DNA of 64,000 nucleotides. Origin: an uncultured Chlamydiae bacterium (GTDB lineage Bacteria > Chlamydiota > Chlamydiia > Chlamydiales > SM23-39). The first letter of the stretch is position 1, and the number at the start of each line of letters is the position of its first letter. The position numbers are program-made. The stretch spans positions 32,001 to 96,000 of the forward strand of contig CAWHDP010000002.1 of the NCBI GenBank assembly GCA_963828125.1. The letters run 5' to 3'. Shown piece after piece: positions 15,001 through 21,000 of this stretch.

Positions 15001-18000
15001 TCAAAAAAAGCGACCGAGAGGGGAATGTAGGTGTTCTTCATCCAAAAGATGAGCGGCTCAGCTTTTTCATAGACAAACAGCATCCCTTCTCCTTCAGGTA
15101 GACCAGCCCTCCCCATCAGTCCTCTGGCACGGGACTCATGGGTGTCTGCGACTTCCACGGATAGAATCTCTTTGCCGATCTGAATATACTCTCCGAAGAG
15201 CGTAGAAAGAGCAACCAAAAAAAACAGACAACGCATATGATGAAAATTATATGCTACGGGGATTGTTTTTGTCTGCTCTCATTTGCGCTTTCCCCCTTTA
15301 TCCGATCCACGTCCCCTTCCACCGCACTCTCAAGCCCCACCCGAATATTAGCGCTCCTTGGTTCACTGGCCCCCTTCTGGCCCCTTCTGCCTTGACGATT
15401 CCTTTCGGCCACTATAATATCGAACCGTATATTTACGGACTGGCCAACACCGGCGCTTACGATGGCCATTGGCAACCGGTCAAAAAGGAAAATTTTTGGA
15501 ACAACTACTTTCAGACGCTCCTCGCATTCGGCGTCAACAATTGGGCCGATTTTCAGTGCAATCCAACCCTTTTCTATAACTATTCGGACTCCTCCGCAAA
15601 ATGGGCGCTCGGAGATATGCCGATCGCCTTCGATTTTCAGCTCTACCATCCGACTCGCACTCTCACTGAATGGAACGTCGCCGTAAAACTCACTTTGAAG
15701 GAGACCTTGCCTCTCGGAAAATACCGCAATCTCGATCCGAAAAAACGGCTTACTGATGTGGGGGGCATGGGGTCGTGGCAGACGGCCGCGAGTCTTGTTG
15801 TAGGCAACATGTTTTATTTGGGGAGGAGCCATTTTTTGACTTGGCGCACGAGCTTCCAGTATACATGGCCCGCTCCAGTTTATGTAAAAAATTTGAATGT
15901 TTACGGCGGAGAAAAGGGGACTAGGGGCACCGTCTACCCGGCTCAAAATTTCCAGATCGATTCGGCGATAGAGGTGAATTTGACACAACATTGGGCCTTT
16001 GCTATGGATATTGTCGGCGCTTGGTCTGGCAAAACCCGTTTTAAAGGGAAAACGGCCGCTCTCAACGCGGCCCCTCCGGGCGCTCAGTTCAGCCTGGCTC
16101 CTGCCATCGAATATAATTTTAATGCCAACATCGGGATCATTTTTGGACCCTGGTTCACCTTGGGCGGCAGAAACGCCATTGAATTTGCAAGCGGCGTATT
16201 TGCGTTTAATTACTATAACTAAAAGATTGTTTTTCATTCTTTTTTAATTGTGTGTATACTATAGTGTATCTAAATTAACTAAATGTAGGTTATCTATGGG
16301 AAATATAAGTACAATTTTAGCTGCTATCTTATGCGCCGCTGCGCCTCTTGCCTCGATGGAGGTGAAAGACCCAAAAACGGAAATGAGACAATCGGCAGAT
16401 CAATTGGGCAGCCGTACGGTTTCATCGATCCGCGCCGCCTATCAAAACGGGGATTATCGTGAATTTTTTAGTGGAATGGACGCCTCTCACAAAGCAGCCG
16501 ATCTATCTGGGCTGACACAGATGCGCGAGAAAGAGATTCCGCTCCAATTCCAACAAGAGTGGGAACAGCGGTTCACCGACCTTCGGATGGAGAAGAACAG
16601 AGATTTATTGGGAGCTATTTCTGATAGCGACGACTCGCTCTTCGCTGAAAAAGTTCGCTCTGTGGCGGCGAATCTCACAACGCCCGAACAGGAAAAAGCT
16701 CTCTCTCGCCTCCACTCTCTTCTTACTATGGCGCCAGGAACAGGGGCCAATGAAGATGAAAATAGGTTGATCGACATCGATATAGAGTATGAATACAAAA
16801 TCCTTCACGCCGAAATCCCCTCTAGCGACGTCTCTTTGCAGCAGCAACAGGAACAGCAAATCGCCCTCCGGATGGAGAAGATGGATAAAATGGTCGAGGC
16901 TTCGAAAACTTTCCAAGACTTGTCGCTCAAGCAAGCTGTTGGCATTGCCGCCGCCACGCTCGATCAAAGGCTCGCGCGCAACTTAGATGGAGCCGATCTC
17001 AATGCCCTTGCCAAAGGGAAAGTGAAGCCTTCGAACGAAACAGAGGAAAAGGTCTACTCGATCCTCTCTTCTTATCAAGGGAAATTCTCCGATTTGATGA
17101 AAGAACTCGACCATGCGAATCGGTAAACTGCTGATTGTTTCCATGGTGGCGCTCGCATCTTGCGCCACCCTCTATCAAAAAGAGGGGATCTTTACAAACG
17201 GCTATTCCGATCTCCGCGCAGGGAAGGATATTTTTGTCGTTACATTCAGGGCCAATGAATTCACCCCTGCAGAAAAAGTGAGGAAATACGCCCTCAAACG
17301 GGCTGCTGCGATCGCAGCGAAGAACGGATACCGATACTTTGTCGTACTCGATGAGACCGGAGAGGGGAAACATCTCTTTTACCCATCGCTCCGCCTGACC
17401 ATCCAGTGCTTCCACGAAAAGCCGATGAACCCGATGGCCATCGACGTCAAATGATTTTAAGGATCCATGAAATGCCCAGAATAGGACTCGAACCTACACG
17501 CCTTGCGGCACCAGAACCTAAATCTGGCATGTCTACCAATTTCACCATCTGGGCAAAATAGGCAGTTTACGCAAAAAAGGGTCTTTTGATCAATTTATAA
17601 CTCAGTCCCATCGTGGATTCTGTTCTCGAGAGATTTGAGGAAGGGTTCGAGCTTTTGTTTCTCCTCTGCGTCCAAATGATCGAGAAATAAAATGCCGTTT
17701 ATATGATCGGTTTCATGCATGATCACGCGAGCTTCCCATCCAGATACTCTTTCTTTGATTTTATTCCCTTCTAGATCCAAATATTCCACAGTCACTTCCC
17801 GAGGGCGTGTCACTTCGGCGCGAATAGAGGGAATGGAGAGGCAGCCTTCCGAGGCTTTCCAAGTCTCTTTGCTCGGCATGGATAATTCCGGATTGATAAA
17901 GACTTTTTCTTCCCTCATTTCTATATTCCCTTTTGCCATCTCAACGGGCTTCCGAATGACAAACAGTCGGATCGAATGGTGCACTTGCGGCGCTGCCAGG

Positions 18001-21000
18001 CCCATCCCGTCACACGCATCCATGGTCTCCACCATCTCCTGAGTCAGCTTCCGAATGTCGTCGGTGATGTTCAGGATCGGATCGGCTATTTTGCGCAAAA
18101 TAGGGGCGCCATAATAGGCGAGGGGGAGGAGTCGAAGTGGATGGATGGTCATTAAATTGGGTGCATGACCTTCAGCCAACTGACCGCTCCGATAGAGCCA
18201 TTTTCCCTTTATTTTTTCAAAATAACTTTTTTCTGTAAAAGATACATCTCTTTTATTTTGAATGAGATGTGCGGTAAATGTGACGGTGGCGAAGGGAGGG
18301 TTTTCCAAAAAATGGAGGATTTCAAGATTTTTAAATTCTGTCTCTTTGCAAAACTCAAAAATCTTTTTAGACCATTGGGCTGTATGATGCGAAAATTCGG
18401 GGCTTCCAGGATGGGTTGTATGAATAATGTAGGCGGGGAGGCAAAGGGCGTAAGCCGAATACCGCGAGCGCATGAGCTTGAGGGCCGTCTCTGGTAGCTG
18501 CCCCTCATGAAAAGGGAGGCAGCAGTTGCCGTATGTGTGTCCGCTTTTACAGGGACAAGGCATATCTCGGCCAGGATCAGTTTCTTTAAATGAATATCCC
18601 ATCGTAGAGCCTTAATTTTTGATTGAGTTCGTCCCATTCTTCTTCCGCGTCGGATCCTTCGACGACGCCAGTGCCGGAAAAAAGGGTCGCCGTTTTGCCT
18701 CGGATGAGACAGGAGCGGATGCCAACGATCCATTCAGAGCTCTCAGAGGTTGTCCATCCAATCACGCCGCCGTAGAGCCCTCGATCGAACTGTTCGAATT
18801 CCCGAATGACCGAATAGGCTTTTTGTTTGGGGGCGCCGCAGAGGGCAGGAGTTGGGTGGAGGCTCGATAGGATCTCTTGATCCGTGGTCTCTTTTTTCAA
18901 TATTCCGGAACATTGGCTGTAGAGGTGCTGTACATTCTGGGTCCGATGAACCGTAACCGGAGTAAAGGAGAGGGGAGTCAGGCAAAGGGGGGATAAGGCG
19001 TTTTTAAGATAGGTCTGAACGGGAATGAATTCTCTGATATCTTTCGCGCTGCTCAGGAGCTCTTTTTGCAAAGCTTCGTCCTCTTCTGCTGTCACGCCCC
19101 GCCGTCTCGTGCCGGCAACCGCTTCGCTTCGCAAGTTCCGCCCGTTTCTCGCGAAGAGCCGCTCGGGAGTGGCGCCGAGGAATCCTTCTGTGTCCGATTG
19201 GACGCAGAAGAGGAAGGCGCCTTGCGCTTTCGGTTTCAGGGAGGCTGCGATGGCAAACGGGTCGGGGGCCTCCTCGAGCTCAAGGGTGCAGGTGCGGGCA
19301 AGGACCACTTTTTCGAGCTTTTCTTGCTGCATCAATCGGAGGGTTTGTTCTACGCCCCTCTTCCACTCTTCTTGGGTCGGAGAATAGCGCCGCTTCACGA
19401 CTTTAAAGTGGGCGGGGGTGGGTAGATCGGTTTGTCGGACAGCGGAGGAGTATTCATGGAGCGATGAAAAGGGGCAGAAGTGGAAGGTGCAATGGGGGGG
19501 AGGGGAGATCCCTTCCCGATCGGCCCAATAGATTTTTTTCACCCTTTTTCTCCGACGTAAAGGGTCACGCTCCCTAGATTCATGGGGATTTCGCGAAGGC
19601 GGCCAAATCCCGCTTCTTTCATCAGGAGGCAAAACTCTTTCCCCGAAGGAAAATGCTCGATGGTTTGATTGAGATAGCGGTAGGCTGAGCGATTGCGGGA
19701 GATGAGCCCTCCGATCCGAGGGAGGATGTGGCGTAAATAAAAGAGGAAAAATCCGCGGATCGGTTTGGGGGGAAGTGAAAACTCCAAAATGAGACAGCGC
19801 CCTTTTGGCTTTAAGACTCTGTAGATCTCTTTGAGCGAGCGGAGGGGATCGGTGACGTTTCGGATGCCAAAAGAGAAGGTAGCGGCGTCAAAATTCATGT
19901 TCTTGAAGGGGAGTTTTTCGGCGTCGGCACGAAAGAATTCCATTTTTGCGGGGATCTTTCGTTTGGCGATTTCGAGCATCTCCGTTGAAAGGTCGATCCC
20001 AATGATCGATTGGATGGAGGCGCCGCTTTGCATCAGGGCCAGCGCTTGATCGCCCGTTCCGGTCGCTAAATCGAGAATTCTGAGATTTTTTTGCGGAGGG
20101 AGAAAGGCGGCGAGTTTCTTGCGCCAGCGCAAATCTTGTCCAAACGAGACAACCCGATTGACCCGGTCATAGGTAGCCGAGAGTTGATCAAACATCTTCC
20201 AAACATTTTCGCGAGAGGGATTGGCCATCGGACACCTTTAGACGTCCCCCATCGTATCACACCGGTAGATAAATGCTCAATGATTGAGCAAAGCGTCCAC
20301 ATAGCTTTCAGGATCAAACATCTCTAGGTCTTCGGCCTTTTCTCCGACGCCGACCCATTGAATGGGAATGCCGAGTTGTTTTTGGATAGCGATTGCGACG
20401 CCCCCTTTGGCCGACCCGTCGAGTTTGGTCAAAACAATGCCAGTTAGAGGAGTGAACTGATGGAAGGTCTTTGCTTGGTCGATGGCGTTTTGTCCAATAG
20501 TAGAGTCGATGACTAAGAGGATTTCGTGGGGTGCGTCGGGGAGCTGTTTTTGGCAGACGCGCCGCACTTTAGCCAATTCATGCATCAGGTCGGTTTTGGT
20601 CTGGAGCCTACCGGCCGTGTCGATGAGGACGATGTCGGAGCCGCGCGCAATGCCTGCGGCCACGGCGTCAAAGGCGACGCCGGACGGGTCGCTGTTCGGC
20701 TGCGATTTGATGAGTTCCGCGCCGACCTGTTGGACCCAGGCTCCGATTTGTTCGATGGCGGCGGCTCGAAAGGTGTCGCCGGCTGCTACGAGGACTTTCT
20801 TCCCTTGCCGAGTATAGTGGGAGGCGAGCTTGGCGAGGGTCGTGGTTTTCCCGCTGCCATTGACGCCGACAAGGAGAATGACGTGGGGCTTATGGTTCAA
20901 GATAGGCCGAGAGGCGAGCATCCCCTGTAAAAGATCCTGTTTCACAAAGGCGAGGATTTCATCTGTTGCGAGGGTCGGTTTTTTCTTGTAGAGCGCCCGG

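Follow-up and report, generated by a model that had tools for sequence, protein, structure and literature searches.

The window, the 64,000-nucleotide stretch of an uncultured Chlamydiae genome analyzed here, encodes a protein in which a YchJ module, headed by a SEC-C-type metal knuckle, is joined to a complete peptide deformylase, the type of enzyme that strips the formyl cap from newly made proteins. The families are known, but their combination is new. We tentatively favor the reading that the product is an accessory deformylase, deprived of a basic anchor tail, which YchJ would place or gate at new N-termini. The initial annotation had described a 335-residue fusion, and the open reading frame is indeed present (335 codons and a stop, ATG start), with Pfam and NCBIfam in agreement (Table 1). 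The Pfam Pep_deformylase match covers residues 160-315 (E 2e-52), and the protein scores above the NCBIfam deformylase cut-offs (TIGR00079, 134.1 versus 103.95; NF001159, 169.8 versus 125). The SEC-C match is marginal (21.7 bits versus a Pfam cut-off of 20.4), and the score for the NCBIfam YchJ equivalog, 81.8 bits, is under the cut-off of 120. The start codon is uncertain, since initiation at M1 produces an overlap with the upstream gene and M14, an alternative start, immediately precedes the cysteine motif.

Table 1. Features of the fusion gene (window positions) and other deformylase genes of the genome (contig positions).
Feature	Position	Strand	Basis or remark
Whole gene, YchJ-peptide deformylase fusion	17595..18602	-	ORF, Pfam, NCBIfam
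Upstream neighbor, chorismate-binding-enzyme ORF	18586..19632		Overlapped 17 nt by the fusion's ATG at 18602
Divergent SEC-C-type Cys4 metal knuckle, residues 15-30	18513..18560	-	Pfam, 21.7 bits
YchJ middle NTF2-like domain, residues 39-140	18183..18488	-	Pfam YchJ_M-like, E 6e-22
Inter-domain linker, residues 141-156, consensus ..GHAPNL.TTGQ	18135..18182	-	Conservation in fusions
Peptide deformylase catalytic domain (PDF-F clade), residues 157-315	17658..18134	-	Pfam, NCBIfam, Foldseek, tree
Deformylase motif 1, GMGLAAPQ, residues 199-206	17985..18008	-	Conservation
Deformylase motif 2, EGCLS, residues 252-256, with metal-ligand Cys	17835..17849	-	Conservation
Deformylase motif 3, HETDH, residues 296-300, two metal-ligand His and catalytic Glu	17703..17717	-
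C-terminal helix and tail, non-basic, residues 316-335	17598..17657	-	Alignment, net charge
PDF-2, ordinary deformylase	C2:202608-203072
PDF-3, deformylase	C1:86629-87084		HAIDH in place of catalytic HExxH (by eye)

All the catalytic motifs are present in the deformylase half, from which we infer that the fusion protein is an active deformylase. Across 60 fusions, G201, A203, A204 and Q206 of motif 1, E252, C254, L255 and S256 of motif 2, and H296, D299 and H300 of motif 3 are invariant, while E297 is conserved in at least 90%. Among the 120 matches listed, motif 1 and HExxH are each found in 119 and the strict pattern EGC[LMF]S in 107. These motifs are those of type-1 deformylases (Def; PF01327, TIGR00079), and the fold matches the E. 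coli, Pseudomonas and plant PDF1B structures (Foldseek against solved deformylases, E 5e-16, target TM 0.87-0.93). The fusion differs from type-1 Def in its 156 N-terminal residues of YchJ module and linker and in forming its own paralog clade. A deformylase tree built from 116 sequences groups 45 of the 46 fused domains in a single clade with moderate support (0.79). This accessory paralog clade, PDF-F, has the housekeeping chlamydial deformylases (35 sequences, 0.96) as its sister group, and the parent node has a support of 0.99. Every match to residues 157-328 with more than 57% identity is a fusion, and a free PDF-F member was not seen. The fusion genomes have kept the housekeeping enzyme: a single YchJ_M match, without a second YchJ copy, was found in 57 of the 58 other fusion genomes, so that the second match detected at E<=1e-40 in 39 of 59 fusion genomes must be a deformylase. 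Like many bacteria, this genome has more than one deformylase, with three Pep_deformylase matches and one YchJ_M-like match in profile searches. The two additional deformylases had been described as ordinary. This is correct for PDF-2, which is 37% identical to the fused domain, but not for PDF-3, where Ala replaces the Glu of HExxH.

PDF-F no longer has the Lys-rich tail found at the C-terminus of the housekeeping enzymes. The latter end in ..IKKK in chlamydiae, whereas the fusion ends in a conserved RIHDGTEL (exact in 40 and ..TEL in 51 of the 120 matches listed). Beyond motif 3, fused proteins (n=79) have a net charge of -1.25, compared with +3.87 for housekeeping ones (n=30), whose tails were truncated where the match ended, and the entire domain is more acidic (mean net charge -8.7 versus -2.35). 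Of 60 fusions, 36 have Glu at the position aligned with L149 of E. coli and 41 at the one aligned with K150, and 17 of 31 housekeeping deformylases have Lys at the first of these. Passages of a study of accessory deformylases (Mol Biol Evol 2025, PMC12690207) describe the C-terminal helix as the ribosome anchor of the E. coli enzyme and report an accessory Vibrio Def2 that varies in the anchor residues; the extra copy studied here likewise differs in this helix. Neither “Chlamydi” nor “YchJ” occurs in its main text. By analogy, YchJ could replace the basic C-terminal helix in an “anchor swap.” This idea rests mostly on net charge, because the housekeeping chlamydial enzymes, when aligned to E. 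coli Def, do not conserve all six ribosome-contact residues.

The N-terminal half shares the CxCxSGx5CC knuckle and the NTF2-like core with YchJ/UPF0225 (E. coli b1233; Salmonella YchJ, PDB 9VXG, 9L6B; 2JQ5, 2I9W). Its sequence retrieved 2jq5 (E 1e-13) and 9vxg (E 3e-8) from the PDB, and the fusion model aligns with 9vxg (Z 20.3, rmsd 2.1 A over 128 residues), 2jq5 (Z 19.5) and 2i9w (Z 17.1). The knuckle, with the ligands C16, C18, C27 and C28 and the conserved S20 and Y24, corresponds to the N-terminal metal-binding domain (MBD) of YchJ; the four Cys and Y24 are invariant in 60 fusions and in 87 fused and free YchJ. The fusion lacks the C-terminal SecA-like knuckle and basic tail, and the deformylase stands exactly where this domain would be. 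The domain is also missing from all 120 closest free YchJ listed, and 2JQ5 (128 aa) has the same one-knuckle form. Passages of a study in Salmonella (PMC13377102) describe YchJ as a ROS-sensing DNA-binding repressor, in which the C-terminal SecA-like domain binds DNA, Cys149/150 of that end are the redox switch and the N-terminal Cys are structural metal ligands. This mechanism is inapplicable as described to the fusion, since the latter lacks the C-terminal knuckle and the basic tail (Cys149/150, Lys144-148). The repressor role reported there is a different job and speaks against our preferred reading, although it depends on the C-terminal part.

The fusion architecture is conserved, and its presence in 59 of 400 sampled Chlamydiales genomes spans 10 families. 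The model of the whole protein (pLDDT 93.2, pTM 0.87) predicts with high confidence that the two domains are arranged in a fixed way, including the linker (pLDDT 84-89 in the residue blocks 141-160), where all of 60 fusions share G145 and at least 90% of them share P148. The C-termini of free YchJ (P0121-P0125) coincide with the start of this linker. The initial annotation regarded 119 of 120 relatives as fused, which turned out to be an artefact of length filtering: the homologue search for the 335-aa query was limited to 184-587 aa, which shut out stand-alone YchJ. With residues 1-150 as the query, the best 120 of 244 matches have 100-169 aa and carry PF17775 without PF01327. The count of YchJ_M-like domains in the initial annotation (349 of 559 genomes) mixed both forms; in our sample 304 of 400 scored genomes have the domain. 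Most chlamydial YchJ are stand-alone proteins of 125-150 aa, including those of all seven genus-mates, and occur in about four of five YchJ-bearing genomes. With most copies free, and with no deformylase beside them in the 26 stand-alone loci examined, the module is not a general deformylase tether in chlamydiae.

Fused and free YchJ do not co-occur; for example, this genome has no YchJ at the site holding the free gene in its genus-mate G254. Free YchJ are up to 80% identical to the fusion's N-module. The fused modules interleave with the free ones in the tree, with at least 9 state changes, and their monophyly is rejected (AU test, p 0.0017). Given this interleaving and the lack of co-occurrence, the fused YchJ half and its free counterparts in other chlamydiae are interchangeable. 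According to this tree the deformylase half was lost repeatedly and, as most chlamydiae do without it, the coupling is dispensable. The fusion is genuine, ancient and constrained, and the claim that it links YchJ to a nascent-chain enzyme holds. The link is even stronger than proposed, because a second fusion, in the reverse order (PDF-YchJ, 8 protein clusters), involves a different deformylase lineage. Independent joining events thus number at least two and cover both domain orders. Further fusion partners of YchJ are GNAT and DUF952 (ART-like) domains; the GNAT partners have no NCBIfam match above cut-off and are thus not assignable to protein N-terminal acetylation.

How could YchJ act on the enzyme? 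It might target nothing and instead sense a ligand, a metal or the redox state to switch or protect the deformylase, which is the main alternative to our reading and somewhat less likely. The catalytic Fe(II) of deformylase is oxidation-labile. The NTF2 cone could bind a small molecule, such as an amino acid or a compound with a formyl or acyl group; alternatively, iron/zinc or oxidation could be reported by the Cys4 site. The Fe(II) enzyme would be switched or protected accordingly. Several observations point this way. The polar residues R45, R47, H64, E124 and S126 are (near-)invariant across 87 free and fused YchJ, as expected for a putative pocket, and, YchJ itself aside, the best fold matches are small-molecule-binding NTF2 proteins (Z 9-11). 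The chemically diverse fusion partners would suit a portable sensor. In three chlamydial families, genes for amino-acid or solute permeases are tightly coupled to free YchJ (Trp/Tyr permease in all 8 loci of family f8, BrnQ in G254, SSF in G351). Zinc and some iron co-purify with YchJ, according to passages of bioRxiv 10.1101/613315, and the Salmonella protein is required for peroxide defence (PMC13377102). But the Cys149/150 switch of the latter is absent here, and its N-terminal Cys are described as structural. A further observation in favor is that ychJ precedes purU, the gene of formyl-THF deformylase, by 49 bp in 14 of 19 Enterobacterales loci, but this link is confined to one order: PurU adjoins ychJ in none of 61 loci elsewhere, one of which has a Formyl_trans_N gene.

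The initial annotation had proposed that SEC-C itself is a SecA-type docking knob, tethering both the deformylase and methionine aminopeptidase (MetAP) to translating ribosomes. The MetAP at C2:~901.2 kb does start with a canonical SEC-C (39.7 bits; E 2e-6, 30.3 bits to the SecA MBD 1sx0), followed by Peptidase_M24, and this motif cannot be serving SecB, since the SecA of this genome (95% complete) has no MBD at its end and SecB was not found. The Cys ligands, Ser and aromatic residue of SEC-C (PF02810) are common to SecA, YecA/AscA, MetAP and the fusion. In SecA and AscA, as passages of two preprints describe (bioRxiv 10.1101/613315; 10.1101/2020.07.21.215244), it forms a flexibly tethered knob at the C-terminus that binds SecB and ribosomes (70S for AscA, in the second), and both speculate on ribosome docking by such domains on MetAP and other proteins. 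The fusion's knuckle is instead N-terminal, of the divergent YchJ type (E 0.034, 17.7 bits to 1sx0) and, in the model, packed onto the NTF2 domain (pLDDT 95-98) rather than tethered. The first preprint notes that this motif is without the SecB-binding residues. Since the retained knuckle is not the C-terminal domain that binds SecB, ribosomes or DNA, and given the restricted distribution of the fusion, we consider docking by SEC-C improbable. The knuckle would be mainly structural, and we do not claim it as a docking element; the whole YchJ module is a possible ribosome-targeting unit. We give equally little credence to a harmless gene join whose halves work independently. Deformylase genes join readily with all sorts of unrelated neighbors (passages of PMC12690207), the deformylase half was often lost, and the genomic context of the fusion differs among this genome, G325 and G197. 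The persistence in many families with a conserved linker and a confidently predicted fixed arrangement, the lack of free PDF-F among the close matches and the independent reverse-order fusion argue against it. Furthermore, since YchJ and deformylase are not neighbors in any free locus examined, read-through from one gene into the next does not account for the join. In the natural Def-Fmt fusion of Exiguobacterium (same source), which is functional by complementation and coexists with a second complete deformylase, the partner belongs to the same pathway. That partner is an enzyme of known function, whereas the one described here is an orphan-like binding domain.

In the reading that we prefer, YchJ would position or gate the deformylase on its substrates, the formylated N-termini of newly made proteins, and the likeliest site for this is the ribosome exit or its vicinity. 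Stand-alone YchJ would accordingly act as a small factor for nascent chains or N-termini, to which the fusion hard-wires an extra deformylase. The fusion thus hints that YchJ, whose function is disputed, may act alongside the enzymes that process fresh protein ends.

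The fusion gene is present as the initial annotation described it, and joins a YchJ module at its N terminus, through a linker, to a peptide deformylase. Deformylases are defined by three motifs, GxGxAAxQ, EGCLS and HExxH, and all three are intact in the fusion (GMGLAAPQ, EGCLS and HETDH). It passes the NCBIfam deformylase models TIGR00079 (134.1 bits against a cut-off of 103.95) and NF001159 (169.8 against 125). It misses the cut-off of the YchJ equivalog NF002486 (81.8 bits against 120), which is expected, since the fusion is a partial and divergent form of YchJ. Its knuckle is an N-terminal Cys4 motif with a conserved Ser and an aromatic residue (C16, C18, S20, Y24, C27 and C28).

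Location of the fusion, its domains and related features of the genome
Feature	Location	Strand	Size	Details
YchJ-deformylase fusion	window 17595..18602	-	335 aa	
SEC-C	residues 15-30 of fusion			Pfam PF02810, 21.7 bits vs cut-off 20.4, marginal
YchJ_M-like (middle NTF2-like domain)	residues 39-140 of fusion			PF17775, 78.7 bits vs 22.7, E 6e-22
Pep_deformylase	residues 160-315 of fusion			PF01327, 177.2 bits vs 22.8, E 2e-52
RIHDGTEL tail	window 17598-17621	-	last 8 codons	modelled flexible, pLDDT 64 in last residue block
Three ORFs downstream of fusion	window 15251-17454	+	323, 292, 113 aa	no Pfam match
ORF overlapping the first of these	window 15254..16237	-	327 aa	probably spurious, nearly full overlap
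PDF-2, ordinary deformylase	C2:202608-203072		181-194 aa	EGCMS, HENDH
PDF-3, divergent deformylase	C1:86629-87084 (L003:1381-2400)	-		GLAAPQ, EGCFS, HAIDH
Small SEC-C protein	L006:1318-1569 (C2:~635.7 kb)		83 aa	canonical N-terminal SEC-C, 36.7 bits
SecA	L038, C2:1618823-1622437		961-aa frame	
Site of BrnQ-b and free YchJ in the genus-mate G254	L166:106-1479 (C1)		457 aa	unrelated ORF

Both domains are found in all of the best 120 whole-protein relatives in the database (281-357 aa), and the named ones among these are Chlamydiota MAGs in which the protein is annotated just as "peptide deformylase". Motif 1 and HExxH are each kept in 119 of the 120, the strict EGC[LMF]S-type pattern in 107 and the knuckle in 117, the remaining three being N-terminally short. 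Across 60 aligned fusion homologues, the four knuckle Cys and Tyr24 are invariant, as are G201, A203, A204, Q206, E252, C254, L255, S256, H296, D299 and H300 of the deformylase. Conservation extends into the linker, where G145 and Y163 are invariant; it is 90% or more at P148 and across most of L159-G165. One divergent YchJ-deformylase of 314 aa (P0280) has ESCLS, HHNDH (with the catalytic Glu changed to His) and no recognisable motif 1, and activity may have been lost in some fusions of this kind.

An AlphaFold2 model of the whole fusion, built with the homologue alignment, reaches a pLDDT of 93.2 and a pTM of 0.87, with a linker pLDDT of 84-89. From this model we infer that the two halves are probably held in a fixed arrangement. 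The C-terminal half falls on more than 30 solved deformylase structures (Foldseek, E 5e-16 to 1e-14, target TM 0.77-0.93). When modelled by itself (pLDDT 93.9), the N-terminal half aligns in structure with Salmonella YchJ 9VXG (Z 20.3) as well as with 2JQ5 (19.5) and 2I9W (17.1). After YchJ, the matches listed in the structure search are generic NTF2 folds only, with Z of 11 or less; neither Tim44 nor mL45, which would have pointed to an exit-tunnel kinship of the NTF2 domain, is among the 50 matches listed in a wide search.

How common is the fused form? The initial annotation had reported that 119 of 120 relatives of the N-terminal module (residues ~1-150, knuckle and YchJ domain) were fused to a deformylase. 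This figure reflects the search, which was confined to proteins whose length was 0.55-1.75 times that of the whole query and so excluded free, stand-alone YchJ of about 130 aa. With residues 1-150 as query, the best 120 of 244 matches are proteins of 100-169 aa that carry YchJ_M-like without deformylase and are up to 80% identical to the module. The C-termini of free YchJ coincide with the start of the fusion linker. None of these closest free chlamydial YchJ (0/120, the best 120 of 244) has the second Cys motif, the C-terminal SecA-like knuckle; it is present in a chlamydial YchJ of 162 aa from another sampled genome (G134). Of the 400 genomes of the phylum that were scored, each from this genome's order or more closely related to it, 304 encode YchJ_M-like, almost always in single copy, and one family of ~1.1-Mb genomes has none (0/29). 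A match spanning both halves occurs in 59 of the 400, including this genome, spread over 10 families; one of these copies is interrupted by stops and one is truncated at a contig end. A single YchJ_M match is found in 57 of the 58 other fusion genomes, so the fused and free forms do not co-occur.

None of the seven other genomes of the genus has the fusion, and all seven have YchJ_M-like. In one of them, G254, a free YchJ of 128 aa, 50% identical to the N-terminal module, lies between two BrnQ genes. The corresponding site of our genome has kept the syntenic flanks (BrnQ-a is 70% and a 605-aa gene 68% identical to G254) and has no YchJ. At several loci a permease gene stands directly before the free YchJ gene, on the same strand and at gaps of -3 to 41 nt. 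In the chlamydial family f8 this neighbour encodes a Trp/Tyr permease (8 of 8 loci; L009-L013, L015, L017 and L020), in G254 (L021) BrnQ and in G351 (L036) a sodium:solute symporter. A merger of adjacent genes was considered as the origin of the fusion and rejected, a deformylase being near none of 26 free chlamydial YchJ loci (flanks of 1.5-5 kb). No decayed deformylase remnants were seen behind the closest free YchJ, and an alignment past the stop codon at L027 was not meaningful on inspection.

In the window, the ATG of the fusion overlaps the 3' end of a chorismate-binding-enzyme gene by 17 nt, and this gene is preceded on the same strand by a UbiE-type methyltransferase gene and ftsY. Downstream, three ORFs lie on the opposite strand. 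The fusion has no shared gene context among our genome, G325 and G197, and ftsY, two genes upstream, thus carries no evidential weight.

The genome (2.37 Mb, 2 contigs, 95% complete) has three Pep_deformylase matches and a single YchJ_M-like match, the fusion. PDF-2 is an ordinary enzyme that falls in the housekeeping clade of the deformylase tree. As a further complete-motif deformylase in this genome, it makes the fusion an accessory deformylase in the sense of PMC12690207. PDF-3 keeps motif 1 and EGCFS and has the catalytic Glu of motif 3 changed to Ala; it lies in a long open frame with ~150 N-terminal residues without assignment, and its NCBIfam scores are below the cut-offs. The gene may encode a deformylase that is inactive or has been given another use.

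In an IQ-TREE analysis of 84 N-terminal modules and free YchJ, at least nine changes between the fused and free states are needed (gain and loss not being distinguished), and one clade uniting all fused forms is rejected by the AU test (p 0.0017, log-likelihood difference 144). A FastTree of 257 sequences gives the same interleaving with weak supports. In a deformylase tree of 116 sequences, 45 of 46 fused domains form one clade (support 0.79). Its sister clade, under a parent node of 0.99, unites 35 housekeeping chlamydial deformylases (0.96) and tracks the family labels; PDF-2 belongs to it, as do the second deformylases from 13 of the fusion genomes. A second deformylase-type match (E<=1e-40) is present in 39 of the 59 fusion genomes. 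We saw no deformylase of the fused clade standing free; all matches with more than 57% identity to residues 157-328 are fused. The simplest course of events would be that YchJ fused once, long ago, with a duplicated deformylase, after which the deformylase half was lost repeatedly or the fused gene was transferred. P0326, a divergent fusion, is placed with a housekeeping deformylase (0.93), and may be another independent join or a long-branch effect.

The fused deformylases differ from the housekeeping ones at their C terminus. Housekeeping chlamydial deformylases have Lys-rich tails (..IKKK), whereas the fused ones end in a conserved, non-basic RIHDGTEL, exact in 40 of 120 fusions, with ..TEL in 51 of 120. 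The free ..T-E-L end presumably resembles a class I PDZ-binding tail. After motif 3, the net charge averages -1.25 in fused proteins (n=79) versus +3.87 in housekeeping ones (n=30, tails cut at the match end), and over the whole deformylase domain it is -8.7 versus -2.35. In E. coli, the deformylase's C-terminal helix is described as entering between uL22 and uL32 of the ribosome via L149, K150, R153, K157, K160 and R163 (PMC12690207). At the positions under L149 and K150, Glu is found in 36/60 and 41/60 fusions, and position 149 is Lys in 17/31 housekeeping proteins; the other four contact positions have mixed residues in both groups. The evidence for a change in the anchor region of the fused enzyme is suggestive but not decisive.

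YchJ has also been joined to other partners. When residues 1-150 were compared, without a profile, with 1.84 billion representatives, 3080 relatives emerged (E<=1e-3), of which 26 long or odd proteins were scanned with Pfam. Eight of these are YchJ-deformylases, two of them partial, and there is one each of reverse-order deformylase-YchJ (P0264), GNAT-YchJ, YchJ-GNAT and DUF952-YchJ. Another GNAT-YchJ is found in the family of our genome (G155). The reverse-order form comprises eight clusters (333-379 aa) with intact motifs, and its deformylase is of a different lineage from that of the fusion; the opposite domain order and the different lineage imply that YchJ and deformylase were joined at least twice, in both orders. 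No reverse-order fusion was found in the 400 sampled genomes, where only the deformylase part matches (10 genomes, E<=1e-75). Five of the eight reverse-order fusions (P0264, P0419-P0422) have, by eye, a ~25-residue hydrophobic segment before the deformylase domain, which suggests a membrane anchor or signal sequence. Among the relatives listed for this second lineage, 37 of 120 are DUF952-deformylase fusions, the named ones from Protochlamydia and Parachlamydiaceae. In these fusions DUF952 lies N-terminal to the deformylase, and one protein joins DUF952 to YchJ; the proteins behind these observations are among P0436-P0536, with P0478 (340 aa), and P0250. By their domain architectures, deformylase, YchJ, DUF952 and GNAT are a small network of mutual fusions. 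DUF952 is absent from our genome; it is described as a Tpt1-like domain of the ART clan (PMC8120803, PMC7955679).

We considered whether the GNAT partners are N-terminal acetyltransferases of the RimI/J/L type and rejected this, as no NCBIfam model scores above its cut-off (rimI, 32 and 27 bits against 86.4). The Pfam family Acetyltransf_3 presumably includes RimJ and RimL. Several of the 26 scanned relatives have N-terminal extensions without Pfam assignment, and their cluster members are red-algal proteins of Cyanidioschyzon and Cyanidiococcus. These red-algal YchJ (P0299, P0296 and the cluster members P0391 and P0416; Cyanidioschyzon merolae and Cyanidiococcus yangmingshanensis) are 39-42% identical to the N-terminal module, and their extensions of 75-217 residues resemble organelle targeting peptides. 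They may represent another chlamydia-like gene of the plastid lineage. In E. coli K-12 (L083:3783-5133), ychJ lies 49 bp upstream of purU, encoding formyltetrahydrofolate deformylase, on the same strand, and the two are adjacent in 14 of 19 Enterobacterales loci (L085-L103). As a cross-phylum "formyl" link this pair was rejected, PurU being adjacent in 0 of 61 loci of other groups, and it serves as no more than a lead. In one of those 61 (L131, Ectothiorhodospiraceae), ychJ has a Formyl_trans_N gene 78 bp upstream.

Which part of YchJ could matter to a deformylase? E. coli YchJ is described as having two knuckles, the C-terminal one 73% identical to that of SecA and with the SecB-contact residues kept, and the N-terminal metal-binding domain without the SecB-binding residues (bioRxiv 10.1101/613315). 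The same source reports a SecA-like knuckle on many bacterial methionine aminopeptidases (MetAPs), for which its authors suggest a link to the ribosome; "deformylase" is nowhere in its text. One source terms such metal-binding domains an evolutionary toolkit. Salmonella YchJ is presented as a peroxide-sensing repressor of rssB that works via Cys149/150 and C-terminal basic residues, its four N-terminal Cys binding a metal (Nat Commun 2026, PMC13377102); deformylase, Chlamydia and acetyltransferase do not occur in that text. The C-terminal SecA-like knuckle and basic tail of the E. coli and Salmonella proteins, which serve DNA binding and the ROS switch, are replaced in the fusion by the deformylase, which takes exactly the position of the SecA-like knuckle, and the N-terminal knuckle is retained. 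In our genome SEC-C is carried by the MetAP (strong, 39.7 bits), an 83-aa protein and the fusion (weak, 21.7 bits). The small protein has little beyond its motif and a low-complexity tail; a counterpart of 95 aa in G207 (L030:1885-2172, SEC-C 42.2 bits, also with a low-complexity tail) is 330 bp from a free YchJ gene. SecA itself ends ...SSRKIPTLIQGA, without a Cys-rich metal-binding domain, so that the SEC-C motif exists only outside SecA here, and SecB (PF02556) was not found in the genome. The initial annotation had proposed that the SEC-C motif itself is a ribosome dock shared with the MetAP. Against the SecA metal-binding domain 1sx0, the fusion knuckle scores E 0.034 (17.7 bits) and the MetAP motif 2e-6 (30.3 bits). 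We regard this narrower claim as improbable.

The reading that fits best is that the fusion is an accessory deformylase dependent on YchJ in cis, YchJ being the older, self-sufficient unit. We tentatively propose, as a possibility to be taken seriously, that YchJ places or gates the fused enzyme at the N-termini of new proteins, probably close to the ribosome exit; YchJ in cis would then take over the role of the lost basic ribosome anchor. In the main rival reading, YchJ acts as a portable sensor, responding to a ligand, a metal or a redox state. Its polar residues are conserved, its enzyme partners are diverse, free YchJ genes in three chlamydial families are tightly coupled to genes for amino-acid permeases, and ychJ pairs with purU in Enterobacterales; these observations favor a sensor, which we nonetheless hold to be somewhat unlikely. 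That the fusion is a harmless join with uncoupled halves seems equally improbable to us as the shared ribosome dock, given a conserved linker and a modelled fixed arrangement. We also entertain a bolder view, in which YchJ/UPF0225 is a general, hitherto unrecognised partner of enzymes at the alpha-amino end of new proteins, a small factor recognising the nascent chain or its N terminus, and rate it as unlikely, if worth stating. YchJ would work in trans with deformylase in most bacteria, perhaps also with N-acyl-transferring enzymes. Chlamydiae would have joined it permanently to deformylases on two or more occasions, with both domain orders, thereby freeing one accessory deformylase of its own basic anchor, and the transcription-factor role in Salmonella would be a use of the extra C-terminal knuckle peculiar to that lineage. 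Complex predictions of free YchJ with the housekeeping deformylase of one non-fusion genome (G180) scored 0.33, 0.28 and 0.41, and one control scored 0.50; these values carry no weight either way on binding in trans.

In the literature searched, we found no description of the YchJ-deformylase architecture. Databases already display both Pfam domains on the fusion proteins; what is new here is the architecture of known families, together with a lead to the function of YchJ that can be tested. Deformylase itself is a target for antibacterial drugs. A def-fmt fusion is mentioned in a survey of accessory deformylases from 2025, whose main text contains neither chlamydiae nor YchJ (PMC12690207). 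YchJ is widespread (3080 representatives) and was without a function until the 2026 report of the Salmonella peroxide-sensing repressor (PMC13377102), a mechanism that needs the C-terminal part, which is missing from most chlamydial YchJ. Unbiased clues to the working partners of an orphan domain are few, and natural fusions are among them. The clue is unusually strong in this case because there are two independent joins, with two deformylase lineages and opposite orders, and because fused and free YchJ do not co-occur and the anchor region of the deformylase appears to have changed alongside. The fusion offers a link of YchJ to co-translational N-terminal processing that can be tested directly, and extends the recent picture of accessory deformylases by a chapter specific to chlamydiae.
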